From NCBI GenBank assembly GCA_947588355.1, contig CANPYI010000004.1, forward strand, positions 1,244 through 65,243: 64,000 bases of DNA, given 5' to 3'. A program made the position numbers and the translations under genes. Below the pieces are notes generated by a model. The model saw only the letters and a program-made list of their open reading frames with translations, was not told where the DNA came from and searched no databases. Source of the DNA: an uncultured Clostridia bacterium. GTDB taxonomy: Bacteria; Bacillota; Clostridia; Christensenellales; UBA1242. Below, piece by piece: positions 10,419-56,249 of the stretch (positions within the stretch are counted from its first letter, which is position 1; each line of letters begins with the position of its first letter).

Positions 10419-10928
10419 TCATTTTTTTTCATCTTTTGATTTGCCTTTATTCTTAAAGAAATAGATTGAAAGATAAACAACAAACAACACTACTCCGATT
10501 GTCAACGCAACATCTGCAAAATTGAAAATAGGAAAACTAGGCCAAAAAGCAAACTGAACAAAATCTCTGACATATCCAAGAAAAATTCTGTCATAAAGGT
10601 TGCCCAAACATCCGCCAATCAAAAAACCAAAAGTTATATTAAGTAGCCAAGTTTTGTTTTTTTCTTTTATATAATAGAAAATAAAAATAGCCAAAAAAAC
10701 GAAAGAAAGTGCAATCAAAAACAACTGTTTTCCTTGCAAAATCCCCCATGCAGCGCCCATATTTTTCACAAATTTAAAACTGAACAAATATGGAATGACA
10801 GTAAGCACATCGCCACTTTCAAGTCTTGCTTCAAAAACATATTTTGTCACCAAGTCCAATACCAAAATGGCAACAATAATTGCCAGCATAACAGAAAATC
10901 TTATCCAAAATTGCTTTTTCACTTTCAC
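10419..10928 (-). CDS. lspA: lipoprotein signal peptidase II
   Basis: 4-TM protein with VKNMGAAWG and FNFADV motifs. Confidence 0.9.
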   Translation of the reverse strand: MKVKKQFWIRFSVMLAIIVAILVLDLVTKYVFEARLESGDVLTVIPYLFSFKFVKNMGAAWGILQGKQLFLIALSFVFLAIFIFYYIKEKNKTWLLNITFGFLIGGCLGNLYDRIFLGYVRDFVQFAFWPSFPIFNFADVALTIGVVLFVVYLSIYFFKNKGKSKDEKK

Positions 10929-10934
10929 TCCAAA

Positions 10935-11300
10935 TTATTCCCTTTCAAGTTCCATATTTTTCGGTAAAAAGATTATCAAATTTTTGTCAACTTGTTCTTC
11001 CGAGGCGCCCAAAACATCAATCACACCATGAAAATAGTCCAAAATTTTGTTTTTTTCATATCCGCTACATGCCCTAAAATCCACAAAGAAAGGTGTATTT
11101 TTCTTCAATAATTCAATTTTATCCTTTATTTCCTCAAAAGTTTCTGGATAAAAAACTTTAACTCCATCAATTTCATCTGGCAATTTTTGTGAAATTTTAA
11201 GATTGTAAGATGCTTTTGGCGTGGTGTTTTTCTTTTTGACAACTTTCACATCGTCACCCTCAAAGCCAAAAACCCTGTAAATATAGTCCATGAAACTCAT
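10935..11300 (-). CDS. sepF: SepF-like cell division protein (DUF552)
   Basis: 121 aa. N-terminal amphipathic MSFMDYIYRVFGF and a C-terminal SepF-like core (VFYPETFEEIKDKIELLKKNTPFFVDF). Confidence 0.65.
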   Translation of the reverse strand: MSFMDYIYRVFGFEGDDVKVVKKKNTTPKASYNLKISQKLPDEIDGVKVFYPETFEEIKDKIELLKKNTPFFVDFRACSGYEKNKILDYFHGVIDVLGASEEQVDKNLIIFLPKNMELERE

Positions 11301-11447
11301 ATTTCACCTCTTGTATAAAAATATATCACAATTTTCAATAAAAAACAAAATAAAAACTAATACTTAGCAGTTATTTTTATTTTCAACTAAGTCACAGAAT
11401 AATATTTTGTGAGAATAGCGAACTCTTGCGAAATGAAATTGAGCAAC

Positions 11448-13060: not shown

Positions 13061-15133
13061 TTATTGTTTTTTTCTTGCTCCGACAATTCCTTCGGCGATA
13101 TTTTTTGGAACTTCGTTATATTTCAAAAATTCCATAGTGAAAGTTCCGCGTCCTTGTGTTTGAGAACGAAGGTCTGTGGCATAGCCAAACATTTCTCCAA
13201 GTGGCACTTCGGCATTGACAACTTGCACGCCTGGACGTGTTTCGTTTCCTGTCAAAATTCCACGACGAGAAGTGAGGTTGCCCATAACCGTTCCAAGATA
13301 GTCATCTGGAACTTCAACCTGCACTTTCATAATAGGTTCCAAAAGCACAGGATTTGCCTTTGCAGCGCCGTCTTTGAACGCCATAGAGCCGGCAATCTTA
13401 AATGCCATTTCAGATGAGTCGACTTCGTGATAAGAGCCGTCAATAACTGTAACTTTAAAGTCCACAGTTTCGTATCCTGCAACGACACCTGTCTTGCTTG
13501 CTTCTTGAATTCCGTTGTTGATTGGTTGAATATATTCTTTTGGAATAGAGCCACCAACGGTCTTGTCTTCAAATTGATATCCAGAGCCTGGTGCAAGAGG
13601 TTCGATGTCGATGATACAATGACCATACTGACCTTTACCACCGCTTTGACGGATAAATTTGCCTTCTGCACGAGTTGCCTTTCTGATAGTTTCTTTGTAA
13701 GCAACTTGAGGTTTACCTACATTTGCTTCCACCTTAAATTCACGCAAAAGTCTGTCAACGATGATTTCAAGGTGAAGTTCGCCCATACCGGCAATAATTG
13801 TTTGTCCAGTTTCTTGATCAGTGTAAGTTTTGAAAGTTGGATCTTCTTCTGCAAGTTTGATAAGTGCAAGCACCATCTTTTCTTGCATAAGTTTTGTTTT
13901 AGGCTCGATAGCAACGCGAATAACTGGGTCTGGGAATTCCATGCTTTCCAAAACGATAGGATGCTTTTCGTCACAGAGGGTTTCGCCGGTGATTGTGTCT
14001 TTAAGACCTACGATAGCGGCGATGTCGCCTGCTCCAACCTCTTTGATTTCTTCACGTTGATTGGCGTGCATACGAATAAGTCGTCCAACACGTTCTTTTT
14101 CGCCCTTATTTGAGTTGTAAACATAAGAGCCGGCAGTCAGTTTTCCGGAATAAACACGGAAGAACGCCAATCTTCCAACAAATGGGTCAGTCATAATCTT
14201 AAATGCAAGTCCGGCAAATGGAGCGTCCTCACTTGGAGCACGAGTTTCAGTTTGCTCTGTTTCTGGGTTTACACCTTCAATGTGGTCAATATCCAATGGA
14301 CTTGGCAAGTATTCAACCATGCAGTCCAAAAGCATCTGAACACCTTTGTTTTTGTAAGAAGAACCGCAAATTACAGGCACGATTTCACGAGAAATTGTTG
14401 CCTTGCGAAGTGCTTTTTTAAGTTCGTCAACACTTATTTCTTCGCCCTCAAAATATCTTTCAAGCAAAGCATCGTCTGTTTCAACGATTTTTTCGACCAT
14501 TTCATTGTGAAGTTGTTCTGCCTTAGCCTTATACTCCTGCGGAATTTCTTCAACATCAATTTTTGTGCCGAGGTCATCTTCATAAACCTCCGCTTTCATT
14601 GTCATAAGGTCAATAATTCCTGCAAAAGAATCTGCCTCACCAATTGGCATTTGAATTGCCAGTGGGTTTGTCTTCAATCTTTCGCGAATTGATTCAACAC
14701 AGCCATAAAAGTCGGCAGCATCACGGTCCATTTTGTTGACATAGATGATTGTTGGAACTTTGTACTTTGTGGATTGACGCCAAACAGTTTCTGTTTGAGG
14801 TTGCACCTTGTCACGAGCAGAAAGCACCAAAACCGCACCATCAAGCACTTTCAGTGAACGTTCAACTTCAACAGTAAAGTCAACGTGTCCCGGAGTGTCG
14901 ATAATGTTGATTTTGTGGCCTTTCCAATGACAGGTTGTGCAAGCAGAAGTGATTGTGATACCACGTTCCTGTTCCTGTGCCATCCAGTCCATAGTTGCCT
15001 CACCATCATGCACTTCACCGATTTTGTGGTTTTTGCCGGTGTAGAACAAGATACGTTCTGTTGTAGTGGTTTTTCCGGCATCAATATGAGCCATGATTCC
15101 GACATTTCTGGTAAGTTCAAGATTTGTAGCCAT
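13061..15133 (-). CDS. fusA: elongation factor G
   Basis: 690 aa with AHIDAGKTT and DTPGHVDF motifs. Confidence 0.98.
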
Positions 15134-15225
15134 AATATCTTTTTCCTTTTAATAAATTTGTCTATTTTTTAAGGAAATAAACATAAAAAACCTTGGTTAT
15201 TTCCAATTAAAATACTCAAGTAAAG

Positions 15226-15251
15226 TTTTGCAAGGCGAAAAGGAGTTTGTG
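15226..15251. repeat. 26-nt direct repeat, copy 1 (ttttgcaaggcgaaaaggagtttgtg)
   Basis: 25/26 identical to 15460-15485, 234 nt away. Confidence 0.8.
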
Positions 15252-15459
15252 ACATATTTTTGCTCTCAACGCCCCACTTCGCAAGAGGAGTCGCCGCAAA
15301 ACCGCCAATGAAATGCGGTTTTCGTTTGGCGGCGAAGTGGTGAGGCAAGCGTCAAGGCGATGCTTTTGTAATCCTCTTCAAAATTTTAATAGTGAAAGGA
15401 CTTTGTCCGCTCTTTAAAATTTTGAAGCCCTTTGGCCGCCAGCAAAATGTCCAGCGGAA

Positions 15460-15485
15460 TTTTGCAAGGCGAAAAGGGGTTTGTG
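15460..15485. repeat. 26-nt direct repeat, copy 2 (ttttgcaaggcgaaaaggggtttgtg)
   Basis: 25/26 identical to 15226-15251. Confidence 0.8.
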
Positions 15486-15556
15486 GGGAAAACGAATTTT
15501 AGGCGTTAGGAAAACCCTGTTTTCCGTGTCGCCGTTAAGAAATTCTAGTTGTCCCC
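15485..15556. ncRNA. conserved multi-stem hairpin motif, copy 1 (candidate structured RNA or REP-like element)
   Basis: Identical blocks TTTTAGGCGTTAGG (15497-15510) and CCGTGTCGCCGT (15524-15535) flank an inner stem ggaaaac/gttttcc. Outer pairings gaattt/aaattc and gggga/tcccc. Ends 5 nt from the rpsG stop. A second copy is at 54528-54614. Confidence 0.4.
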
Positions 15557-15562
15557 GCACGC

Positions 15563-16036
15563 TTACCACTTGTAGTGTGCAAACGCTTTGTTTGCTTCGG
15601 CCATTCTGTGCATTTCGTCACGTTTTTTGATAGATGCACCAGTGTTGTTGTATGCATCTATAAGTTCGCCTGCAAGTTTTTCGTCCATGTTGCGTTCGCC
15701 AGTTCTTTTTCTTGCATTGTTCACAATCCATCTGATTGCAAGAGTTTGACGACGTTCTGGGCGGATTTCCATAGGCACTTGATAAGTTGCACCGCCAACA
15801 CGACGACCTTTTGTTTCAAGCATAGGCTTAACATTTTCAATTGCTGTCAAACAAACATCAAGTGGTTCAAGACTTGTCTTTTCTTTTACAATATCAAAAG
15901 AGCCATAGACAATTCTTTGTGCAAGACCTTTTTTACCGCTCATCATAACTTGGTTGATAAGTTTTGTCACAACTTTGTTGTTGTAAATTGGATCTGGCAA
16001 AACATCTTTTTTGACAGCACTATTTCTTCTTGGCAT
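15563..16036 (-). CDS. rpsG: 30S ribosomal protein S7
   Basis: 157 aa, canonical S7 sequence. Confidence 0.97.
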
Positions 16037-33781: not shown

Positions 33782-36331
33782 TTAGTCTTGTTTTTCAACA
33801 ACCTCATAAACATTTCCGTTTCCGCCCTTAACTTGAGACTTATAACCATCCTTCAAGTAAGATTGTCTGTCATTTGTGTTTGGATGTTCTGGGTTAAAGC
33901 CTGTAAATTCGCCGCCGCTAACTTCAATTTTGGCTTGTGTTTCATTTGCTTCGTCATAAATGTTTAAAGTCCACTTGCCACTATCATTTGTTGATGTAAA
34001 CTTACCGTTTGCGATTTCCACTGTTCCATTATTTACCAAAACAATAGGCGCTTTAGTTTCAAACACACCACTTTCAATCACAAGATGTCCAGCACGTTCT
34101 GGTTCCATGAATAATTGAGAACCAACATTGATTAGTGCAAGGGTGTTGCTTTTAGAAACAAATTTGCCATTTTCTTTGCTATCTTTGATTGTTAATTTTG
34201 CATTAAACACAATGAATATTGCAGAGTAGTTTGTTGTCAAAGTGTGTCCGTTGAGGTCAAGAGTGATTTGGCTTTTGGCATTTTCAAGTTGAATGTACTT
34301 TCCATCGAAAGTTATATCACTGTCCAAAACAACAGTTTGAGTTTTGGCTGCAGTCAAAGCCGTTCTGAAACTTTCTGCTGTTTTAACGTGAACATTTCCG
34401 TCTGTATATGCCTTTACAGTGTAAGTGTCACTACTTTCTTCTGCATAGAAGCCTTCTGCAACATATGATTCTTTTCCGTCATCGTTTTTAAGTTCGTCAG
34501 GATTGAATCCATGGAACTTTCCGCCCTTTACAATGATGTTTGCAGTTCCGTTTTGAGCATTTGCATTCAAGCAGTTCAAAAGGAAGTTTTTGTTTCCATT
34601 TGTCGTTTGTTTAATATCAAATTCGCCGTCGTTGATTGTGCAAATTCCATGATGAACATATACCGCATGAACATTTCCTTTGAAAGTTCCGTTTTCAATC
34701 GTCAAAGTTCCGCCATAAACGTCCAAAGCATACACATCATCTTGTTTTGCGTCAAATGTGCCATTGCCTGTAACTGTCAATTCTCCACCGTCTCTGACAG
34801 ACACAAGTGACCATCTGTCATTTTCGCCGTATCCTTCTTCGCCATCGTTACTCCAAACATCAACTGTGTTTGAGATTTTGTGTCCAGCAAGGTCAAGTGT
34901 AACATTTTTGTTTGTAACTTTGAAGATTTTTGCAGTATCCAAGGTTATGTCGCTTGTAAGAACGACATATGAATTGTCGTGTTTAAGTGCGGCTGTGAGA
35001 GTGTCAACATCTTTTGCGTAGCGATAATTTTCAGCTTCAGAAACAGTCCAAACCTGCAATTTTTCGTCTGCATTATCAGTGGTTTTTTCAACTTTATATC
35101 CATCATCAACAAAGTTTATTCCGCCAGTCAAACTTTCTGCTTTGTTGTTTGCTGGATTAAATCCGTGGAAAATTCCGCCCCTTACAATAATGTGGGCTGT
35201 TCCGTTTTTATAATATGCATCTTCACAATTCAAAAGATATCTCTTGTCGCTGTGCCCATCTGACAGTTGTTGCATGTCAAATTCTCCACCTTCAACAATA
35301 AGTGTGCCAGTTCTAACATAAACAGCATCAGCATTTCCGTTGAATTTTCCGTCTTTAATGGTCAATTCTCCGCCTTTAACTACAAACACCCAGCAATCAT
35401 CTTTCAAAGCGGTCATTTCGCCAGTTCCTTCAACTGTCAATTTTCCGTTTTCTTCCACAGAAATGAGTGCAAGTTTGTCTTGGCTTCCGTTCCAAATTGG
35501 AGTTTCGTTTTTGATTGTATGACCGCCCAAATCAAGAGTGAATGTTTTTGCCACTTCAATTTGTTTTGTCAAAACAACATCGCCATTGAGTTTTGCTGCT
35601 GAATAATGCTCAATTGCTTTTTCAAGGTCTGCCTCGCTGCCAACAAGAGCAACACCGCTTTCCTCATTCAAGTATGTCACTGTGACATTGTAAGTATCTT
35701 TAAAGAATTTGCCTTCTTCATACTCATAACTTACAGTTACTGTGTATGTTCCTACTTCACTGAAAGCAGCACCAACTGCAACTTTTGTTTCGCCTTTCAC
35801 GGCTTCTGCAGTCACCTTTTGGTAATCTGCTTGTGCAAGATCTTTCTTAGAGTCGTTTTCGTACACGCCCTTCACCTTCAATCCTGTTGTTGTGAAGTTT
35901 TCGCCAACGAGGAATGCGGTGTCAGCACCTTGCGTGTCAAGTTGAATGCCAGTAAGTTCCGGTTCTGCAACTGTGATGTCATAAGTATTTTTGAAGAATT
36001 TGCCATCTTCATATTCATAACTTACATTGACAGTATAAGTTCCTGCTTCAACAAATTCACTGCCCTCGGCAACTGTTGTTTGGCCTTTCACGGCTTCTGC
36101 GGTCACCTTTTCATAGTCTTTTTGTGCAAGTTCCTTTTCAGACTTGTTGTCATACACGCCTTTCACCTTCAAGCCTGTTGTATTAAACTCTTCGCCGGTG
36201 ATGAATGCGATATGAGCATCTTGCGTGTCAAGTGTAATGCCGGTAAGTTTTGGTTCTCCGCACGCAGTGAGCAGAACGCCGCCTACCAAAAGAAAACAAA
36301 AGCAAGCCAAAATTGATAGAATCTTTTTCAT
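33782..36331 (-). CDS. large repetitive surface lipoprotein (2 Ig-like repeats plus 3 beta-helix-like modules)
   Basis: Lipobox GGVLLTAC. Two ~97-aa repeats (LTGI.LDTQ...GTYTV.VSYEYE.GKFFK.TY). Three ~200-aa modules sharing LDL.GH, GG.LTI..G.F.GN..AVYV, GEFD, LLNC, GG.FHGFNP. Confidence 0.85.
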   Translation of the reverse strand: MKKILSILACFCFLLVGGVLLTACGEPKLTGITLDTQDAHIAFITGEEFNTTGLKVKGVYDNKSEKELAQKDYEKVTAEAVKGQTTVAEGSEFVEAGTYTVNVSYEYEDGKFFKNTYDITVAEPELTGIQLDTQGADTAFLVGENFTTTGLKVKGVYENDSKKDLAQADYQKVTAEAVKGETKVAVGAAFSEVGTYTVTVSYEYEEGKFFKDTYNVTVTYLNEESGVALVGSEADLEKAIEHYSAAKLNGDVVLTKQIEVAKTFTLDLGGHTIKNETPIWNGSQDKLALISVEENGKLTVEGTGEMTALKDDCWVFVVKGGELTIKDGKFNGNADAVYVRTGTLIVEGGEFDMQQLSDGHSDKRYLLNCEDAYYKNGTAHIIVRGGIFHGFNPANNKAESLTGGINFVDDGYKVEKTTDNADEKLQVWTVSEAENYRYAKDVDTLTAALKHDNSYVVLTSDITLDTAKIFKVTNKNVTLDLAGHKISNTVDVWSNDGEEGYGENDRWSLVSVRDGGELTVTGNGTFDAKQDDVYALDVYGGTLTIENGTFKGNVHAVYVHHGICTINDGEFDIKQTTNGNKNFLLNCLNANAQNGTANIIVKGGKFHGFNPDELKNDDGKESYVAEGFYAEESSDTYTVKAYTDGNVHVKTAESFRTALTAAKTQTVVLDSDITFDGKYIQLENAKSQITLDLNGHTLTTNYSAIFIVFNAKLTIKDSKENGKFVSKSNTLALINVGSQLFMEPERAGHLVIESGVFETKAPIVLVNNGTVEIANGKFTSTNDSGKWTLNIYDEANETQAKIEVSGGEFTGFNPEHPNTNDRQSYLKDGYKSQVKGGNGNVYEVVEKQD

Positions 36332-37624: not shown

Positions 37625-38584
37625 TCATTGTTTGCCTCCAAGATTCAATTTGTCGATTGTGGAGTTGACATTATCAAATTCTTTATCAACGCGTTTTGCT
37701 TCAAGTTTTTCTTGAAATAATTTTGCTTGCTCCACAATTTCATTATTGAGTGCCTTTGCTGTCTCAACACTTGCACCTTGTTTTGCTCTTTCTGAGGCAA
37801 CAATTTCTTTCAATCCTTTTCGCAAACCTTCTTCATCTATCTTTCCAGCAAACAAATCGTCAAACAAACTTTCAACTGAACTCTTTTTCTGATTTTGTTC
37901 TTTGCTTTTTTCTTTTTTCAAAATTGGCTTTTCTTTTTCATATCCGTCTTTTTCAGAAAGTTTCACTTTCACAAGCAGTTTCTTTTCTTCTTCAGTGGCA
38001 AATTCAAATGCTTCATCTTGGCATTGTTGTCTTAATTTTTTTGCCTCTTCACTGCCATAGTCATTTGTATCTCCATCTTTGTCAAATGGTTTTGCTCTTG
38101 CAATAAGTTCAAGACTTACAAGTCTCATTGACTTTTCTTTGCCATTTTCACATTCATCTTTGTTCAGCCAGATGTAGTCTTTCTTTCCGAATGTCACAAC
38201 TGGTGTTTTGCTCGTTGTTTTGACTGCTTTTCTTTTTTCTTTGTCCCAAATTTCAGCAGTTCTGGAAACTTCCTTGCAACCTTTGACAAGGTTGCATTCT
38301 GGATTGTAGATTGTTTGCAAAGCGACGCGCAACCCGGCGCCAATGCCGTCACCGATGTCCCAGAACAGGTCGCCGACATCGTTCACAAACATTACTATGA
38401 TGGACGAGCCAGGCAACGCAGTGCGGGTGAAGTAGTATCCTGCTTTGTAATCACTGTTTTCACATGCCCCGTCTTTCTTTGCTTTTTCTGAAAGTGACGC
38501 ACTTGCAAAAGCAGGGAATTTTTTGATGATTTCTTGATAATCTGCCTCACTTGGCAAATTTACAAAGTTTTCTATTGTTGCCAT
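37625..38584 (-). CDS. hypothetical protein, paralog A (MATIEN family) with a coiled-coil C-terminal extension
   Basis: Start MATIENFVNLPSEADYQEI behind GGAGAT. Alignable over ~230 aa with 52881..53600. Motifs YYFTRTALP and GLRVALQ. Confidence 0.7.
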   Translation of the reverse strand: MATIENFVNLPSEADYQEIIKKFPAFASASLSEKAKKDGACENSDYKAGYYFTRTALPGSSIIVMFVNDVGDLFWDIGDGIGAGLRVALQTIYNPECNLVKGCKEVSRTAEIWDKEKRKAVKTTSKTPVVTFGKKDYIWLNKDECENGKEKSMRLVSLELIARAKPFDKDGDTNDYGSEEAKKLRQQCQDEAFEFATEEEKKLLVKVKLSEKDGYEKEKPILKKEKSKEQNQKKSSVESLFDDLFAGKIDEEGLRKGLKEIVASERAKQGASVETAKALNNEIVEQAKLFQEKLEAKRVDKEFDNVNSTIDKLNLGGKQ

Positions 38585-38610
38585 ATTTTTTATCTCCTTT
38601 TGATGCAAAT

Positions 38611-38639
38611 ATTTTAACACACTTTTTGAAAGTTGTCAA
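38611..38639 (-). promoter_or_regulatory. promoter of paralog A
   Basis: Minus strand TTGACA-17 nt-TAAAAT. The region is near-identical to the one upstream of paralog B. Confidence 0.6.
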
Positions 38640-38883
38640 TACCCTTTTTTGAACAATTTTCCACGCCCAATTTTGTCATTAAAAAGATGTATTCCTCAAA
38701 TTTATGCTGCCGAATAGGAAAAATTTTGTCATCGTCAAAATAAATCAAAAGGCAGGGGCGAATGTTGTGATATTCTTCCACTATTTCCCATGTTGTTGCA
38801 TGCCCCTGTTCAATCAAATGTTTCACTTTTGCATGATAATTGAAATACACAACTCTATTGTGCGAAAATTTGAAATAAAAATC

Positions 38884-50208: not shown

Positions 50209-51330
50209 TTATTTTTCATTCAGTGCTTGATTCAAAAGCCCAAGCATAGCAGCATTTTCGGGCTTGTTCATGGCAGGAATTGGAGGCACTCCGTACGAAA
50301 TGTTTCTGTTTATGCACTTTGCAAAATAGTCTTTTCCGCCCTTGATTTTGCTCACCCCTGCGCCGCAAAGATAGATTGGATAATATGGCACATATTCTTT
50401 GGCAAAAAGCCTTATGCATTCGTTGACCGTCTTTGCAATCAAATTCAGGCGATACATAACCACCTCGTTGGCATATGAGAGTGGAATTTTGACAACGCGC
50501 CCTCCAAATGTCATCAAGTCATAAAAATCGCCGTCCTCGCCCTTAAGCGACAGCACAATTTGTTTTTTCAGCGAGCGTGCATCGTTGTAGGATATTCCGC
50601 ATGCTTCCGACAGGTCGCTTGTCACATGACTGCCGCCCATCGAAAAAGATGTAAGATTTGTCAAGCCCTCTCCCTTCACAAATGCCACACTTGTGGTGCG
50701 AGCACCCACATCAATCACGATACAAGTGCGTTCACGCTCCTCTTCCTCCAAAATAAGCATTGCTTGAGAAAGTGGCTCGCAAAGATATTCCACTTGTTCA
50801 ACGCCCATGTCGGTGAAAATTCTGTTGAAAGACGAAATAAACGAACTTTGCGCCAAAACAACCGAAAGTTCTGCGCCAATTTTTCCAGCCTTTATGCCAA
50901 TCGGTGAATTTGTTTTGCGGCTGTCATCAGCCTCAAAATAGATAGGATTTATGCACAAAACCTCCATATTGTCTTCCACAATATCCCTTGAGGCTTCCTG
51001 CAAAAGAGCATCTATATCACTTTGTTTAACCGCACGTTTGAAGCGAAAATTTATTTGCTCTTTTGCTGACGCAACTTTTGAAAATTCAGCCGGAACACCT
51101 ACAAAAATTTTTCTGATTTTTTTCTTGTAAACGGACTGCACTTCTGTGAACAAACTTTTGAGTGCGTCTTCCAATAGTGACGGCTCAACAAAAGCGCCCT
51201 CCAAAAAACCTGCATATTCACGCGTTGCGTGTGCTTTGATGTTGAAAGTTCCATTTATGCCCTTTTGAGCGGCAATGCAAGACAGTTTTGAAGAGCCTAC
51301 TTCCACCACAATAACATTCTGTTCCACCAT
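50209..51330 (-). CDS. ftsA: cell division protein FtsA-like (actin/ASKHA fold)
   Basis: 373 aa immediately upstream of ftsZ; VVEVGSSKL and IDVGARTTS phosphate motifs. Shorter than typical FtsA. Confidence 0.8.
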   Translation of the reverse strand: MVEQNVIVVEVGSSKLSCIAAQKGINGTFNIKAHATREYAGFLEGAFVEPSLLEDALKSLFTEVQSVYKKKIRKIFVGVPAEFSKVASAKEQINFRFKRAVKQSDIDALLQEASRDIVEDNMEVLCINPIYFEADDSRKTNSPIGIKAGKIGAELSVVLAQSSFISSFNRIFTDMGVEQVEYLCEPLSQAMLILEEEERERTCIVIDVGARTTSVAFVKGEGLTNLTSFSMGGSHVTSDLSEACGISYNDARSLKKQIVLSLKGEDGDFYDLMTFGGRVVKIPLSYANEVVMYRLNLIAKTVNECIRLFAKEYVPYYPIYLCGAGVSKIKGGKDYFAKCINRNISYGVPPIPAMNKPENAAMLGLLNQALNEK

Positions 51331-51543
51331 ACAATCCTCTTTTCAGAATTGATAATACAACAAACTTCGACAAAAAGTCAATTAAATTTCATAATTATTT
51401 GAAAAAATTTATATTTATGCAAAAATTTGAATAATCTTGTTAAATCCAACATAAACGGCTTTAATTTGCTCATTTTGTTGACAAAAGTGTGAAAAAAGTG
51501 CAAAAATATATGCCAAGAAGATATTTTGTAAAAGGACAAAAAA

Positions 51544-52830
51544 ATGATTGACATAAATCTTATTCGCACAAACAAAGAATTGGTCAAAGAAAATATTCGC
51601 AAAAAGTTTCAAGACAGCAAACTTGCGCTTGTTGACGAGGTGGAAGAACTTGACAAAAAATCTCGCGCCTTAAAGCAAGAGGGCGACCAACTTAGGCAAA
51701 GCAGAAACACTCTTTCCACGCAAATAGGTGCCCTTATGAAGGACAAAAAGATTGCCGAGGCGGAACAAGTGAAACAACAAGTTCGCAAAAACAACGACCG
51801 CATTGCCGAAATCGAAAGGGAAGAAGAAGTTTTGTCAGAAAAAATTCGCAAAATTATGCTGACAATTCCAAACATAATTGACGAAAGTGTGCCTATCGGA
51901 AAAGACGACAGCGAAAATGTTGAAATAGAGCGATTTGGTCAGCCAAAAGTTCCAGATTTTGAAGTTCCGCATCATGCGGACATTTTGGACAGCATAAACG
52001 GTCTTGACAAAGAAAGCGCCGGCAGAACATCTGGAAACGGCTTTTATTATCTGCTTGGTGATGCCGCCCGCCTTGAAACTGCGCTGATAAACTTTGCACG
52101 TGACTATATGATTGCACAAGGGTTCACATATGCAATTCCGCCATTTATGATTCGCTCAGATGTTGTTGACGGTGTTATGAGTTTTGCCGAAATGAACGCC
52201 ATGATGTACAAGATAGAGGGCGAAGATTTGTATCTTATTGGCACAAGTGAACACAGCATGATAGGAAGATTTAAGGACCAAATCATAAAAGAACAAGACC
52301 TTCCTGTCACAATGACTTCATACAGTCCATGTTTCAGAAAAGAAGTTGGCAGTCACGGAATTGAGGAACGCGGAGTTTATCGCGTACATCAATTTGAAAA
52401 ACAAGAGATGATTGTGATATGTCGCCCAGAGGACAGCATGACATGGTACAACAAAATGTGGAAATACACCGTTGACATCTGTCGTGCCTTGGAAATTCCG
52501 TGTCGTACTTTGGAATGTTGCAGCGGAGACCTTGCCGATTTGAAAGTGAAAAGTTGCGATGTCGAGGCATGGAGTCCAAGACAACAAAAGTATTTTGAAG
52601 TTGGCTCTTGCTCAAACCTTTCAGACGCACAAGCGCGTCGACTTGGCATTCGTGCCAAAGGCGAAAAAGGAACATACTTTTTGCACACCCTCAACAACAC
52701 AGTGTTGGCATCACCCCGCATTTTGATTGCTTTTCTTGAAAATAACTTGCAAGCAGACGGAAGCATAAAAATTCCAACCGCCTTGCGCAATTATCTTGGC
52801 GGCATGGAAAAAATTCTGCCAAAAAAATAA
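51544..52830 (+). CDS. serS: seryl-tRNA synthetase
   Basis: 428 aa with a coiled-coil N-terminal arm and class II motifs (FRKEVGSHG, YRVHQFEK). Confidence 0.95.
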   Translation: MIDINLIRTNKELVKENIRKKFQDSKLALVDEVEELDKKSRALKQEGDQLRQSRNTLSTQIGALMKDKKIAEAEQVKQQVRKNNDRIAEIEREEEVLSEKIRKIMLTIPNIIDESVPIGKDDSENVEIERFGQPKVPDFEVPHHADILDSINGLDKESAGRTSGNGFYYLLGDAARLETALINFARDYMIAQGFTYAIPPFMIRSDVVDGVMSFAEMNAMMYKIEGEDLYLIGTSEHSMIGRFKDQIIKEQDLPVTMTSYSPCFRKEVGSHGIEERGVYRVHQFEKQEMIVICRPEDSMTWYNKMWKYTVDICRALEIPCRTLECCSGDLADLKVKSCDVEAWSPRQQKYFEVGSCSNLSDAQARRLGIRAKGEKGTYFLHTLNNTVLASPRILIAFLENNLQADGSIKIPTALRNYLGGMEKILPKK

Positions 52831-52831
52831 C

Positions 52832-52864
52832 AAAAAAAACACCACTTACTGTGGTGATTTTTTA
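52832..52864. terminator. bidirectional terminator between serS and paralog B
   Basis: A8-caccac-ttact-gtggtg-aT6. Confidence 0.8.
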
Positions 52865-52880
52865 TATCTTTATCAATCGA

Positions 52881-53600
52881 TTATTTCGAAATATTTCTGC
52901 CGTTTTCTTTAATAACAGTTTTCAAAATTGGCTCTGCTTTTTCATATCCGTCTTCTTTGGAAAGCCTCACTCTCACAAGCAGTTTCTTTTCTTCTTTGGT
53001 GGCAAACTCCAGTGCTTCGTCTTGGCATTGTTGTCTTATTTCTTTTGCAGCCTCGCAGCCGTAGTCGTTTGAGCATCCGGTTTTGTCAAATGGCTTTGCA
53101 CACGCGATGGATTCAACGCTGACAAGTTTTGCGATGGCAAGATTGCCCTTGCTATGCTGCTCAATGCATTCTTCCAAGTTAAGAACGATATAAGGTTTTT
53201 TCCCAAACATAACAACCGGTGCAACACTTGTTGTTTCCATCACTCTGCAAGTCTCGTAACTATAAACTTTGGCAGTTCTAGAAACTTTCTCACAACTTTT
53301 CATAACACAACTGTCTGGATCGTATTTTACTTGCAAAGCGACGCGCAACCCAGCATGATCGTTGTAACTGTCGTCCCAGTGAAGGAAGCCTTCTTCACGT
53401 ACAGACTCCACTTTGGAGAACGAAGCCGGCAATGCAGTGCGCGTGAAGTAATATCCTGTATTATAATAATATTCTTCACTAGCCCCTTCTTTTTTGGCTT
53501 TTTCTGAAAGCGGAGCGCTTGCAAAAGAAGGAAATTTTGTCATAATTTCTTTCCAATCCGCCATACTCGGCAAATTTACATAGTTTTCTATTGTTGCCAT
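52881..53600 (-). CDS. hypothetical protein, paralog B (MATIEN family)
   Basis: Start MATIENYVNLPSMADWKEI behind GGAGAT; alignable with 37625..38584. Confidence 0.7.
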   Translation of the reverse strand: MATIENYVNLPSMADWKEIMTKFPSFASAPLSEKAKKEGASEEYYYNTGYYFTRTALPASFSKVESVREEGFLHWDDSYNDHAGLRVALQVKYDPDSCVMKSCEKVSRTAKVYSYETCRVMETTSVAPVVMFGKKPYIVLNLEECIEQHSKGNLAIAKLVSVESIACAKPFDKTGCSNDYGCEAAKEIRQQCQDEALEFATKEEKKLLVRVRLSKEDGYEKAEPILKTVIKENGRNISK

Positions 53601-53625
53601 ATATCTATCTCCTTTTGATGCGGAT

Positions 53626-53654
53626 ATCTTATCATACATTTTGAAAGTTGTCAA
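53626..53654 (-). promoter_or_regulatory. promoter of paralog B
   Basis: Minus strand TTGACA-17 nt-TAAGAT; -35 and flank identical to paralog A (tgaaagttgtcaatac). Confidence 0.6.
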
Positions 53655-53701
53655 TACGATTTTTTTGAAAAGGTCAAAATGAGATGGCAAAAAAACAAAA
53701 C

Positions 53702-53926
53702 CTACTCCCCGCACAAAACCTCAAGGATATATTCAAACACGCTCATTTGTTCATTTGTGACAAGTTGCATAATTTCAGACTCATAATCCAAAAACATCTG
53801 ATATTGCTCCTTGCTTAAAGTGGCAAGCAATTTTTTCTCTACATCAAAATAGGCTTCTGGAAAATTTGGCTTTCCGCCCTCCCGATGCGCATACATCTCA
53901 AACATAATCTTCACAATGTCTTTCAT
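53702..53926 (-). CDS. hypothetical small helical protein
   Basis: 74 aa with a strong AAGGAGAG RBS; divergent from the XRE pair. Confidence 0.6.
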   Translation of the reverse strand: MKDIVKIMFEMYAHREGGKPNFPEAYFDVEKKLLATLSKEQYQMFLDYESEIMQLVTNEQMSVFEYILEVLCGE

Positions 53927-53943
53927 ATTTTTCTCTCCTTTTG

Positions 53944-53973
53944 TATAACTATTGTAATATAACCATAGTTATA
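53944..53973. promoter_or_regulatory. 9-bp perfect inverted repeat TATAACTAT-N12-ATAGTTATA in a divergent promoter region (operator candidate)
   Basis: Read directly; lies between the 74-aa gene and the first XRE gene. Confidence 0.5.
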
Positions 53974-54023
53974 TGTCAAGTATTTTTATTACTATTGCAA
54001 TAAAATTTAAAAGGATATTAAAT

Positions 54024-54227
54024 ATGAACAAATTTGCAGAAAGATTGAAAGAATTGAGAATAGAAAAAGGGTTAACTCAAAAGCAATTGGCTGACGAAGT
54101 TGAAATAAGTCAGGCTATCATTTCTCTGTATGAGAAAAATGTCCGCACACCAACTATAGATATTATAATAATTTTATGCAATTATTTTAAAGTTTCATCT
54201 GATTATCTTATAGGTTTGGAAGACTGA
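54024..54227 (+). CDS. XRE family HTH regulator (tandem copy 1)
   Basis: MNKFAERLKELRIEKGLTQKQLADEVEISQAIISLYEKNVRTP...DYLIGLED. AAGGA RBS. Confidence 0.85.
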   Translation: MNKFAERLKELRIEKGLTQKQLADEVEISQAIISLYEKNVRTPTIDIIIILCNYFKVSSDYLIGLED

Positions 54228-54228
54228 T

Positions 54229-54432
54229 ATGAACAAATTTGCACAAAGATTGAAAGAACTTCGCCTTGAAGAAAATTTAAGCCAAACAGAACTTGCAAAA
54301 AGAACAGGCTTGACACAAACGGCGATAGGAAAATGGGAACAAAACAAACGCACCCCTTCAATTGAAGTGCTTTATGTTTTGTGTCGATACTTCCATGTCT
54401 CCGCCGACTATCTTATAGGTCTGGAAGACTAA
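54229..54432 (+). CDS. XRE family HTH regulator (tandem copy 2)
   Basis: MNKFAQRLKELRLEENLSQTELAKRTGLTQTAIGKWEQNKRTP...DYLIGLED; starts 1 nt after copy 1. Confidence 0.85.
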   Translation: MNKFAQRLKELRLEENLSQTELAKRTGLTQTAIGKWEQNKRTPSIEVLYVLCRYFHVSADYLIGLED

Positions 54433-54456
54433 AAAAAGAGCATGATGCTCTTTTTA
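54431..54456 (+). terminator. intrinsic terminator after the XRE pair
   Basis: A7-gagca-tga-tgctc-T5. Confidence 0.75.
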
Positions 54457-54527
54457 TTTTTTTTATGGAATAAATTTTCAATTTTGCACTAAGCACAAAT
54501 TGAAAATCACCAATGCTGGAGAAGGCT

Positions 54528-54614
54528 TGGGAGAAGAACCAAAGTTTTAGGCGTTAGGCTTTTTTAAGCCGTGTCGCCGTCAAAAACTTTGGTGCGTCAC
54601 CAGTTTGTCCCCGT
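54528..54614. ncRNA. conserved multi-stem hairpin motif, copy 2
   Basis: The same blocks TTTTAGGCGTTAGG (54545-54558) and CCGTGTCGCCGT (54569-54580). The inner stem is now ggctt/aagcc and the outer stem aaagtttt/aaaacttt. Ends 4-5 nt from the yloV stop. Confidence 0.4.
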
Positions 54615-54617
54615 GTT

Positions 54618-56249
54618 TTATTCCAAACTCACCAAATAATAATACACAGGTTGTCCGCCATTGGCAACAGTCACTTCACAATCAGGGTATTTTTTTGCAA
54701 TGGTTTCCTGCAATGCATTTGCTTCGTCCTCGCGAATATCTTCGCCATAAAACAAAGTGATGTTCATTACACTGTCGTCAAACATGGCGTCAATAAGTTT
54801 TTCAGTTGTTTCGCTGACAAGATTTCCTTTTGCCAAAATTGCTTTGTCATCAAGGCCGATAATCTCACCTTTTGCAAGGTCAAATCCGTCAACATGAGTG
54901 TCACGAACAGCATAAGTCACACTGCCCGAGCGCACACTTTTGATTGCCTCCAACATGGCGGCTTGATTTTCCTCCACGCTGGCATCTGGATTGAATGTTA
55001 TCGCTGCGGAAATGCCCTCCGGAACACTGCGAGTTGGAATGATAATGAGGTTTTTGTTGGTCACTTCATTGGCTTGCTCGGCAGCAAGTTGAATGTTTTT
55101 GTTGTTTGGAAAAACAAACACATTGCGTGCTGGCACTTTGTCCGCTGCAGTGGCAATATCCTCCGCGCTTGGATTCATGGTTTGTCCACCCACAATAATT
55201 TCATCAACAGTAAGTTCTTTGAAGATTTGTGAAAGCCCATCGCCCGGTGCAACCGCAATCATGCCAAGTTCTTTGGTTTCCTCAACCGCTTGTGCTTTCT
55301 TTTTAAGTTCACGATTTTGCTCGCGCATGTTTTCTATCTTCAAGTTGTAAAGTTCGCCAAGTTCAAGTGCATATCCAAGTGCCTTGTTTGGCTCGTTTGT
55401 ATGAACGTGCACCTTTACAAGTGACAAGTCACCAATACAAATCACACTGTCTCCAATTTCCATAAGTTTTTCGCGCAGTTTGGTGATGTCAACCTCTGTT
55501 GTCTTTTTGTACATGTTTATAATCATGTACTCGGTGCAATAGCCGTACTCGATATCGCCCAAATTGTTGATGTCGGCAATCACATCGTCAACGGTTTGAG
55601 GCTTTGTCTCGTCTTCAAACGAATATTCAAGTTCTTCGCCCATAAGGAAACGATAAAATCCGGTGAAAATCACCAAAATACCGCGTCCGCCACTGTCCAC
55701 AACACCCGCTTTTTTCAAGACAGGCAACATTTCTGGAGTTTGCTTTAAGATTTCCTCGCCAGTGTCCAAAACTTTTTTCAAAAACAATTCAAAATCATCA
55801 TGACGCTTTGCAAGGCTGACAGCATTTTCCGCCATAACGCGAATAACTGTCAGGATTGTGCCTTCTTTTGGCTTTGTCACGGCTTTGTAGGCGATTGTTG
55901 CCCCTTCTTGCATGGCCTTGGCAAAGTCCTTTGTGGAAATCTCTTTGCAATTTTTCGTCACCGAGCAAAAGCCTTTAAAAATCTGCGATGTAATAACGCC
56001 TGAATTGCCTCTTGCGCCGCGCAAAGCACCTTTTGCAAACGCCTCCGAAAGTGACGCAAGGTCGGTGTTCATGCATTTGTTTATCTCGCCAACAGCCGAT
56101 TTCATAGTCAAAAACATATTTGTTCCCGTGTCACCATCTGGAACAGGAAAAACATTAAGGCTGTCGATATATTCTTTGTTTTGTTCAAGCAGACTTACGC
56201 CCGCAAGGACCATCTTTTTAAAGGTCGCTCCACTAATCGTTTTTTGCAT
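54618..56249 (-). CDS. yloV: DAK2 domain fusion protein YloV
   Basis: 543 aa with an N-terminal Dak2 motif (NVFPVPDGDTGTNM) and a C-terminal DegV-like half; follows asp23/yloU. Confidence 0.9.
   Translation of the reverse strand: MQKTISGATFKKMVLAGVSLLEQNKEYIDSLNVFPVPDGDTGTNMFLTMKSAVGEINKCMNTDLASLSEAFAKGALRGARGNSGVITSQIFKGFCSVTKNCKEISTKDFAKAMQEGATIAYKAVTKPKEGTILTVIRVMAENAVSLAKRHDDFELFLKKVLDTGEEILKQTPEMLPVLKKAGVVDSGGRGILVIFTGFYRFLMGEELEYSFEDETKPQTVDDVIADINNLGDIEYGYCTEYMIINMYKKTTEVDITKLREKLMEIGDSVICIGDLSLVKVHVHTNEPNKALGYALELGELYNLKIENMREQNRELKKKAQAVEETKELGMIAVAPGDGLSQIFKELTVDEIIVGGQTMNPSAEDIATAADKVPARNVFVFPNNKNIQLAAEQANEVTNKNLIIIPTRSVPEGISAAITFNPDASVEENQAAMLEAIKSVRSGSVTYAVRDTHVDGFDLAKGEIIGLDDKAILAKGNLVSETTEKLIDAMFDDSVMNITLFYGEDIREDEANALQETIAKKYPDCEVTVANGGQPVYYYLVSLE

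Follow-up and report, generated by a model that had tools for sequence, protein, structure and literature searches.

A modular, strand-biased structured repeat beside the stop codons of housekeeping genes in uncultured gut Clostridia

Why should two unrelated genes, one for a ribosomal protein and one for a DAK2/FakA-like protein, both be followed by the same kind of multi-stem hairpin? The question arises in a 64-kb stretch of DNA from an uncultured Clostridia bacterium (GenBank assembly GCA_947588355.1, contig CANPYI010000004.1), here called the window, in which two copies of a hairpin, H, adjoin the minus-strand genes rpsG (copy 1) and yloV (copy 2). The initial annotation of this DNA regarded H as a selected structure and as a dispersed repeat, not a terminator, and the computational analysis described here bears out both points. 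H is the 3′-terminal domain of a modular non-coding repeat of 140–190 nt. The evidence supports well the view that this element represents an uncatalogued family of structured nucleic acids in bacteria known only from metagenomes, with unusually clean covariation. Its nature is less settled; the explanation preferred here, tentatively, is a low-copy mobile element.

Structure and covariation of the element

The two window copies are joined by short identical blocks. The block TTTTAGGCGTTAGG occurs exactly twice in the window (15497-15510 and 54545-54558), as does CCGTGTCGCCGT (15524-15535 and 54569-54580), all on the + strand and in the same order at both loci, and the next-best matches carry two to three mismatches, which is chance level. 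Minimum-free-energy folding recovered the nested stems proposed for both copies. The middle stem, GGCG/CGCC, is the same in each; the apical stem is GGAAAAC/GTTTTCC in copy 1 versus GGCTT/AAGCC in copy 2, and the next stem out is GAATTT(T)/(G)AAATTC versus CCAAAGTTTT/AAAACTTTGG, both stems being paired in both copies. The outer stem of copy 1 is GGGGA/TCCCC. As noted earlier, both hairpins end with the motif gtccccg. In copy 1 it occupies 15551-15557 and is separated by 5 nt from the stop codon of rpsG (15563-15565); in copy 2 it occupies 54607-54613, with 4 nt to the yloV stop codon (54618-54620). The span first assigned to copy 1, 15485-15556, was correct in location and too short in extent, for 3 bp of additional pairing carry it outward to 15482-15559. 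For copy 2, the outermost pairing is uncertain: GGGA may pair with TCCC around an inserted GGTG-CGT-CACC hairpin, as first proposed, but relatives use GGTGC..CC-AGTTTG as the 3′ strand of the outer stem.

The hairpin is not a self-contained unit, a point that the initial annotation missed. Alignment of the flanks of the copies revealed that conservation reaches 60–110 nt beyond H, on one side only, and that H makes up the 3′ third of an element ordered, on the window's + strand, as P1 hairpin, linker, block R and multi-stem H. A long form is found at rpsG and a short form at yloV (Table 1). Among the related loci (L numbers), the short form recurs in L010, L014 (two copies) and L030/L031, and in a degenerate state in L022/L023. 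The linker of copy 2 differs from the long-form linker, whose nearly invariant sequence is GCCGCCAGCAAAATGTCCAGCGGAATTTTGC. In the 4-bp helix of the long-form linker, UG alternates with CG at alignment columns 119-122/167-170 (RNAalifold), and the loop of P1 accepts insertions of 45–120 nt (L009, L006).

The covariation first seen between two copies extends to 12–13 copies, including those of other genomes, as expected of a selected structure. In an alignment of 12 copies to covariance model R1, 95.3% of the cells are paired and 19 of the 28 pairs show double-sided changes; this alignment is model-fitted and leans towards the model, and slid controls and independent minimum-free-energy folds agree with it. 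Sliding the 3′ partners by 1–3 columns lowered pairing to 48–60%, and none of 500 shuffles matched the observed values. The seven long forms alone gave 95.9% paired cells, with double-sided changes at 8 pairs. The two most divergent and most telling copies, L014:1738-1864 (L014b) and L030:10475-10561, have P3 flipped to GCGG/CCGC and a wholly different P4, yet they retain the TTA opposite GTGT loop (GTGC in L014b). The internal loops UUA/GUGU are nearly invariant across the copies, and the two sides of P0, one of them at the 3′ boundary, covary (TGT/GCA, CGC/GCG, AGT/GCT). Large insertions are tolerated as well: P4 of L014b has taken up ~45 nt from another repeat, and a junction of L015 contains an extra hairpin. 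Such a combination, stems that covary and unpaired bases that stay constant, is the hallmark of a folded nucleic acid that is recognised by a partner.

The fold does not belong to a catalogued family. With Rfam 15 at gathering thresholds, the whole window yielded one tRNA only; at E<=10 the best match on 15100-15620 was csRNA, with 20.5 bits against a threshold of 57 (E = 3.3), and at E<=1 five related loci gave no match, leaving the element without a match to any family. No description of it was found in the literature. The conserved loops, judged by eye, do not fit the consensus sequences of a K-turn, T-box, SECIS or CsrA site. Coding function was likewise rejected. A 20-aa open reading frame (ORF) that starts in the linker and ORFs of 49–51 aa over H are unconserved, and because differences in loop length break the reading frame the element is not coding.

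Table 1. Positions in the window of the element, its domains, associated modules and adjoining genes
Feature	Position	Strand	Basis and remarks
Whole element at rpsG, long form (~185 nt)	15376-15559	+	
H domain, copy 1	15482-15559	+	Folds; alignment pair counts; covariance-model match, 101 bits
P0, copy 1	15482-15484/15557-15559	+	Fold
Stems between P0 and P3, copy 1 (GGGGA/TCCCC; AAC/GTT; GAATTTT/GAAATTC)		+	Fold
P3, copy 1 (GGCG/CGCC)	15502-15505/15530-15533	+	Fold
Internal loop, copy 1 (TTA/GTGT)		+	Fold
P4, copy 1	15509-15515/15519-15525	+	Fold
Long-form linker	15430-15481	+	RNAalifold; nearly invariant across 8 long-form copies
Linker hairpin (GCAAAAT/ATTTTGC, 7 bp)	15442-15448/15459-15465	+	
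Candidate linker pseudoknot (CCGC/GCGG)	15436-15439/15454-15457	+	Bases invariant, no covariation
Linker 4-bp helix (CTTT:GGGG)	15430-15433/15476-15479	+	Pairs only through G-U
P1 hairpin, copy 1 (5′ domain)	15376-15427	+	Inverted-repeat search; compensatory changes in relatives
Arms of P1, copy 1 (perfect, 14 bp)	15376-15389/15414-15427	+	Apical GGAC/GTCC mini-hairpin
Block R (TTTTGCAAGGCGAAAAGGGGTTTGTG)	15460-15485	+	Links 5′ domain to H; direct-repeat search, 96% identity to R′
R′, second copy of R	15226-15251	+	Followed by module B, not H
Module B	15252-15372	+	Alternative structured partner of R; arms 15291-15302 and 15324-15335, loop CAATGAAAT, bulge CGTTTG
Whole element at yloV, short form (~140 nt)	54474-54613	+	
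H domain, copy 2 (short form)	54525-54613	+	Folds; covariance-model matches, 54.7 and 71.4 bits; P4 GGCTT/AAGCC; outer stems partly degenerate
P3, copy 2 (GGCG/CGCC)	54550-54553/54575-54578	+	
P1 hairpin, copy 2 (ATTTTCAATTT/AAATTGAAAAT)	54474-54507	+	Inverted-repeat search, alignment; homologous to other P1s
Bidirectional intrinsic terminator beyond copy 2	54433-54455	both	Terminator scan
fusA (EF-G)	13061-15133	-	
rpsG (ribosomal protein S7)	15563-16036	-	Pfam PF00177; stop codon 3-5 nt from end of H copy 1
yloV-like gene (DAK2/FakA-like)	54618-56249	-	Pfam PF02734, PF21645, PF13684; stop codon 4 nt from H copy 2

Distribution, placement and strand preference

Covariance-model and pattern scans returned further copies in which the stems are maintained. 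When 185,579 species-representative genomes were scanned for the exact pattern, nine more true copies came to light. They lie in seven genome assemblies, all of uncultured Clostridia from the gut of rabbits and mice and one carrying the label Christensenella sp.; a match in a Dehalococcoidia genome (L013) was dismissed as chance. The total stands at 13 independent copies in about 10 related uncultured gut Clostridia, a small clade to which the element is confined. The exact core occurs once or twice per genome assembly, and the general covariance model R2 found no copy beyond the 13 in 305 kb comprising the window and related loci, an abundance too low for the REP-like element that had been considered for this locus. 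Viral contigs held no match to the hairpin core or to the linker block, plasmid and phage collections searched with blastn held nothing similar, and the JGI metagenomes returned just three chance matches, on contigs of 61–64% G+C.

The sites occupied by the element change between close relatives. Copies at non-orthologous sites of different species are 82–92% identical, compared with 71–82% for the flanking housekeeping genes. At the rpsG site, the window has the long form of the element, H included, and L030/L031 have the short form; H is missing from L004, whose rpsG DNA is 98.9% identical to that of the window, from L024/L025, and from L026, where the rpsG-fusA spacer measures 134 nt versus 429 nt in the window. 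At the yloV site, H is restricted to the window lineage, and its place is taken by a plain terminator or by unrelated sequence in L032/L033 and L034, whose YloV is 95% identical; L034 comes from the same assembly as L009, which carries the element at rpoB. Three sites are each occupied in two species: rpoB (L009/L012), ychF (L008/L014) and rpsG (window/L030). The family accounts for the oddly long spacers (370–850 nt) in the str operon of this clade.

The position of the element relative to genes, as identified with Pfam, is nearly constant. The display strand is defined as the strand that matches the window's + strand at each copy. In 11 of the 13 independent copies, the display-3′ end of H lies 0–8 nt from, or overlaps, the stop codon of a gene on the opposite strand, and the element is antisense to that gene. 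The adjoining genes encode S7 (rpsG; window, L030), YloV (window), RpoB (L009, L012), YchF (L008, L014), HPF (L007), GlnS/GltX (L014), a GyrA/ParC-type protein (L006) and a class II aminoacyl-tRNA synthetase, probably lysS (L011), a set described as essential and highly expressed. In L006 and L014 the host ORF terminates within the element. The family can also give rise to spurious ORF calls and to breaks in contigs. The remaining two copies run in the same direction as the gene that they adjoin: the element ends 5 nt before tRNA-Gly(CCC) in L010, and 6 nt before the fusA ribosome-binding site in L022/L023. A general linkage to tRNA genes was rejected, only the L010 copy adjoining one. An inverted copy of the gene's last bases on the far side of the element, also tried as a candidate feature, is present at the two window copies (7–8 nt) and not at eight others.

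The fold is strand-specific to a large degree. Of 14 copies, 13 are more stable when folded as the display strand, with a margin that is often ~10 kcal/mol, and L009 is marginally reversed. For instance, display and opposite strands reach -43.7 vs -32.0 kcal/mol in L030, -31.9 vs -18.5 in L010, -24.4 vs -13.8 in L022 and -36.1 vs -25.9 in copy 1, and the consensus fold of the whole long form reaches -55.0 vs -46.0 kcal/mol. The aligned helices contain 14 G-U pairs on the display strand versus 2 A-C combinations, which would be G-U on the other strand, and the 4-bp helix of CUUU or CUCC with GGGG is possible on the display strand only. The - strand folds too, with z-scores of -2.4 to -4.9. Thus, the selected strand is the one antisense to rpsG and yloV. 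Mutation bias would not explain this preference, since cytosine deamination on the exposed sense strand would give the opposite asymmetry. The same strand is favoured in either gene orientation, including the co-directional copies in L010 and L022, which argues that the fold serves the element and not the host mRNA. GC skew of the display strand is negative at 9 of 11 loci, in agreement with a location on the leading-strand template, a signal confounded by gene orientation.

A mobile element or a host RNA

The explanation that best accommodates these results, at a probability of only about 0.45, is a low-copy, non-autonomous mobile (selfish) element whose strand-specific structure is acted upon in trans by an enzyme. 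It is suggested by a strand preference that holds in either gene orientation, by turnover between close relatives, by occurrence at unrelated sites, and by copies that are more uniform than the genes around them. Other repeats nested in the loops of the element, and the presence of partial duplicates, also support mobility. An enzyme encoded elsewhere would recognise the element as a folded single strand, either single-stranded DNA or a + strand RNA copy, and the nearly invariant UUA opposite GUGU loop between the covarying stems would be the recognition site. Copies would insert, or persist, where a few neutral bases separate a stop codon from the signal that follows; their position may reflect targeting, or survival in the sole neutral bases of compact spacers. 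The antisense orientation may be tolerated by host operons because the mRNA then carries the weaker fold.

Several results weigh against a mobile element. No transposase or recombinase was found in ten window ORFs (Pfam) or in ~200 kb of neighbouring loci (precomputed Pfam labels), the sole integrase seen being one unrelated rve integrase, and no Y1, tnpA or tnpB is present among the called genes of the neighbouring loci. Terminal inverted repeats are lacking, the longest end-to-end inverted match in 10 copies being 5–6 nt of A/T. Nor is there a target-site duplication, given that the longest direct match between flanks is 4–7 nt and differs in every copy, with the exact 5′ boundary uncertain. 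These two absences exclude the classical MITE that the initial annotation had entertained. The copies share no target sequence, their right flanks reading GCAC, TTAA, GCTA, ACGC, GCGA and others, and the left flank shows a loose AAWCC that runs on into further homology. Together with the lack of a general flanking inverted repeat, these findings point to no known transposition chemistry, and the mechanism of such an element would not be among the textbook ones. The copy number is very low, and nearly every host is a translation or transcription gene, a preference not required of a purely selfish element. For the sites shared across species, constraint and long vertical retention, as expected of a host-useful RNA, are at least as good an explanation as repeated insertion. 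Lastly, the favoured strand lies on the presumed leading-strand template at 9 of 11 loci. This bias is the opposite of the IS200/IS605 pattern.

Such retention also figures in a clearly less probable explanation, in which the element is a + strand RNA useful to its host. The scaffold of P1, linker and H would run on into the 3′ end of the gene and act as a cis-antisense regulator, or the copies would form a family of trans-acting small RNAs, and ribosomal, RNA polymerase and aminoacyl-tRNA synthetase genes would be under antisense or guide-type control. The favoured + strand fold with its G-U-only helix, the loops and linker nearly invariant between species, the low copy number and the make-up of the host genes are all consistent with this proposal, as are the retention of the same sites in different species with compensatory change and the variable hairpins inserted at junctions, as in functional RNAs. 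However, the + strand lacks a terminator, and no convincing sigma-70 promoter was found on it upstream of the element; an A/T-rich, TAAAAT-like hexamer recurs 4–10 nt before P1 with no -35 partner. Copy 2 starts 18 nt past the bidirectional terminator, which places it inside the yloV transcription unit and leaves no space for a + strand promoter. Presence or absence between very close relatives and the two copies that face the start of a gene, not its end, are also at odds with a host RNA. A more novel and doubtful reading is a portable RNA scaffold that takes its specificity from the adjoining DNA. Its transcript from the + strand would stop within the last bases of the gene or continue into them, and would serve as an omega-RNA-like guide or cis-antisense RNA, directed at the 3′ ends of core translation and transcription genes, for a protein encoded elsewhere. 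Such a scaffold would make the family a new class of mobile element in gut Clostridia, one that carries a guide and encodes no protein.

Derivation from an IS200/IS605-type transposon, in the manner of a PATE, is improbable. P1 and H would then be the left-end and right-end subterminal hairpins of an element with an omega-RNA-like scaffold, the + strand RNA would stop at the element boundary, and the adjoining gene end would guide a TnpB-like nuclease encoded elsewhere. Protein-less PATEs acted on in trans are known (Meers et al. 2023, bioRxiv 10.1101/2023.03.14.532601), and the length of ~140–190 nt, the hairpins that seem to lie near both ends on one strand, the sharp 3′ boundary and the lack of inverted repeats and target duplication conform to that model. 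The P0 pairing, in which bases at the 3′ boundary covary with the segment lying 5′ of the outer stem, recalls that of a guide with its cleavage site. Set against this are the absence of a conserved 4–5-nt left-flank motif and of a fixed right-end motif, the unrelated sequences of P1 and H, the lack of tnpA and tnpB noted above, the location of the structured strand mostly on the presumed leading-strand template, and the absence of any Rfam family match over the element, even at E<=10. Rfam presumably includes models of the IS605-orfB and HEARO types. It is also unlikely that the element acts in mRNA sense, on the - strand, as a 3′-untranslated-region or intercistronic stabiliser, an RNase processing site, or a modulator of termination or translational coupling, some of which had been envisaged for rpsG and yloV. 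Both window copies are certainly transcribed in that sense, one within the rpsL-rpsG-fusA operon and the other between the yloV stop codon and the terminator; the stop codon is within 0–8 nt in 11 of 13 copies, and the - strand retains a fold. REPs within 15 nt of a stop codon in Escherichia coli reportedly affect translation. Yet pairing is worse on the - strand in 13 of 14 copies, with A-C mismatches where the + strand has G-U; the L010 and L022 copies stand in front of their genes, inverted relative to them, and still favour the same strand; and the element is missing at orthologous sites of close relatives. An ordinary intrinsic terminator, or a chance likeness between two AT-rich spacers, is already refuted. 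The position just downstream of genes would suit a terminator, and the scan of copy 2 returned just one weak 5-bp hairpin with a T-rich tract, on the - strand. But copy 1 has no terminator-like hairpin with a T-run, in line with the initial annotation, and the real terminator lies beyond copy 2. Chance is countered by the exact 14-mer and 12-mer blocks, unique in the window to the two sites, and by eleven more covarying copies in other genomes.

Associated modules and relation to known systems

The spacers that carry the element also contain other repeats. Module B forms the hairpin CGCCGC-AAAACCGC / GCGGTTTT-CGTTTG-GCGGCG around its loop, and at least five lineages keep it in the rpsG-fusA spacer, with compensatory changes seen in L004, L024, L030 and L022. 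It is located at L004:701-838, L024:10509-10722, L022:19088-19140 and L007:5860-5975, and in the rpsG-fusA spacers of L030 and L022; outside this spacer it stands alone or inverted, and both orientations occur. Module B has no Rfam match, and could be a fusA leader or another mobile module. The order of modules is H-R-A-B-R′ in the window and B-R-A (the B-R-P1 region) in L004, with long and short linkers both occurring. As R is joined to H or to B and the order varies, each spacer is a patchwork drawn from a small set of modules. In mRNA sense, the 5′ arm of B is complementary to the final rpsG codons together with the stop codon (15335-15344 vs 15562-15571), matching at 9 of 10 positions in the window and at 12 of 12 in L024 (AAGTGGTGATGC, 10466-10477, vs GCATCACCACTT, ~10530). 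This complementarity would permit the arm to form a different, long-range pairing, one that ribosomes could open during translation.

A switch of modules is seen in L004, the Logan contig DRR855156_455651, which follows the window up to the rpsG stop codon and thereafter has B-R-P1 modules (78–96% identical) and a different downstream gene (MKKQYSKWLK...). The switch reflects a genuine rearrangement at the repeat or else a chimera that arose when the assembly passed through it. In human-gut relatives, the rpsG-fusA spacers measure 571–845 nt and the rpsL-rpsG spacer 371 nt, and a different repeat directly follows both stop codons (L019:9627-10003, 10472-11322; L021:10472-11048). This repeat, AACTTTTCTA-TGC-TAGAAAAGTT ... 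GGGGAG-TTTCGATT-CTCCCC-AAACCCC, has the outer-stem frame of H, GGGGA..TCCCC-A(C)AAACCCC. A family of short repeats resembling (G)TCATYCTGAGCRAAGYCGAAGRATCTC is present at L006:6050-6200, L008:2340-2420, L014:5600-5700 and 1780-1820, and L024:10620-10850, and one copy sits inside the P4 loop of H at L014:1738-1864. At L014:5419-5650, the 5′ half of H in mRNA sense, GGTGGCAACAAAGTTTTAAACGGCGACAC, recurs ~190 nt downstream, which recalls the R/R′ pair.

At the yloV locus, ftsA directly follows yloV in the relatives L032 and L033, and the two genes are ~3.3 kb apart in the window (region 50209-54617). The interposed block contains two tandem XRE-type helix-turn-helix genes (53973-54432), a 74-aa ORF, serS (51544-52830) and a 277-aa ORF without a Pfam match (52881-53714); H copy 2 lies at its yloV edge. 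The 277-aa protein has a 331-aa paralogue 15 kb away, likewise of no Pfam family (37625-38650 / 52881-53665), and the DNA of the pair is 71–87% identical in three segments, upstream region included. Elsewhere in the window, an 849-aa ORF (33782-36331) with only a weak pectate-lyase-like adhesin match contains a 291-nt tandem duplication (79% identity) at 35679-36257.

The element combines very low copy number, modular build, a fold opposite the host operon and a position near the stop codons of essential genes, features that are not seen together in classic repeat families. MITEs are defined by terminal inverted repeats and target-site duplication, and the element has neither. Integron attC sites consist of R″/R′ cores, RYYYAAC ... 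GTTRRRY, in cassette arrays next to intI. The element resembles them as an imperfect hairpin with conserved structure placed right after a stop codon, with function on one strand and a presumed leading-strand-template orientation; it differs in having no RYYYAAC/GTTRRRY cores, no cassette array, no integrase nearby and housekeeping genes as hosts.

As described by Meers et al. (2023, bioRxiv 10.1101/2023.03.14.532601), protein-less PATEs "often encode omega RNAs" and are acted on in trans; their scaffold runs up to the element boundary, where bases pair with an internal segment. In IS200/IS605 elements, a transposon-adjacent motif (TAM) of 4–5 nt next to the left end has a related counterpart, the transposon-encoded motif (TEM), at the boundary on the right. 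The present family is similar in being protein-less, in a size class of ~150–250 nt, in hairpins that seem to lie near both ends on one strand, in a scaffold that stops exactly at the element boundary, and in the absence of terminal inverted repeats and target duplication; it, too, would depend on action in trans. Both P1 and H take their fold on the + strand. In contrast to PATEs, these end hairpins are unrelated in sequence, the left boundary is undefined, no TAM or TEM was found, the neighbourhoods contain no tnpA or tnpB, Rfam gives no match, and the strand bias with respect to replication is the wrong way round.

REPs are imperfect palindromes of 20–40 nt with a GTAG-type foot, present in tens to hundreds of copies per genome in proteobacteria and mobilised by RAYT (Y1) transposases, whose single-copy gene is flanked by the repeats and whose presumed substrate is the single-strand hairpin. 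Like REP, BIME and REPIN sequences, the element is extragenic, often just 3′ of genes in operons, has compensatory stems and forms mosaics with other motifs. Unlike REPs, its H is a 78-nt, five-tier stem within a unit of 140–190 nt, without a GTAG foot, in few copies and with no RAYT gene in the neighbouring loci.

The BOX elements of Streptococcus pneumoniae are modular boxA-boxB-boxC repeats with more than 100 copies per genome. Like the present element, they are found in Firmicutes, are non-coding, 100–200 nt long and strongly folded, occupy intergenic positions within transcription units and lack a transposase of their own. Interchangeable modules, known from BOX and BIME, are paralleled here by the joining of P1, linker and R to H or B. 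BOX and the present element are not similar in sequence, and the latter has only a few copies as opposed to ~100 or more per genome; the present element is also strand-biased, mostly antisense to the host operon, and marked by a near-constant stop-codon position and invariant internal loops. Although features of copy number and size fail the comparison, by analogy of build and habitat the element appears most like the pneumococcal BOX repeats and the enterobacterial BIME/REP mosaics.

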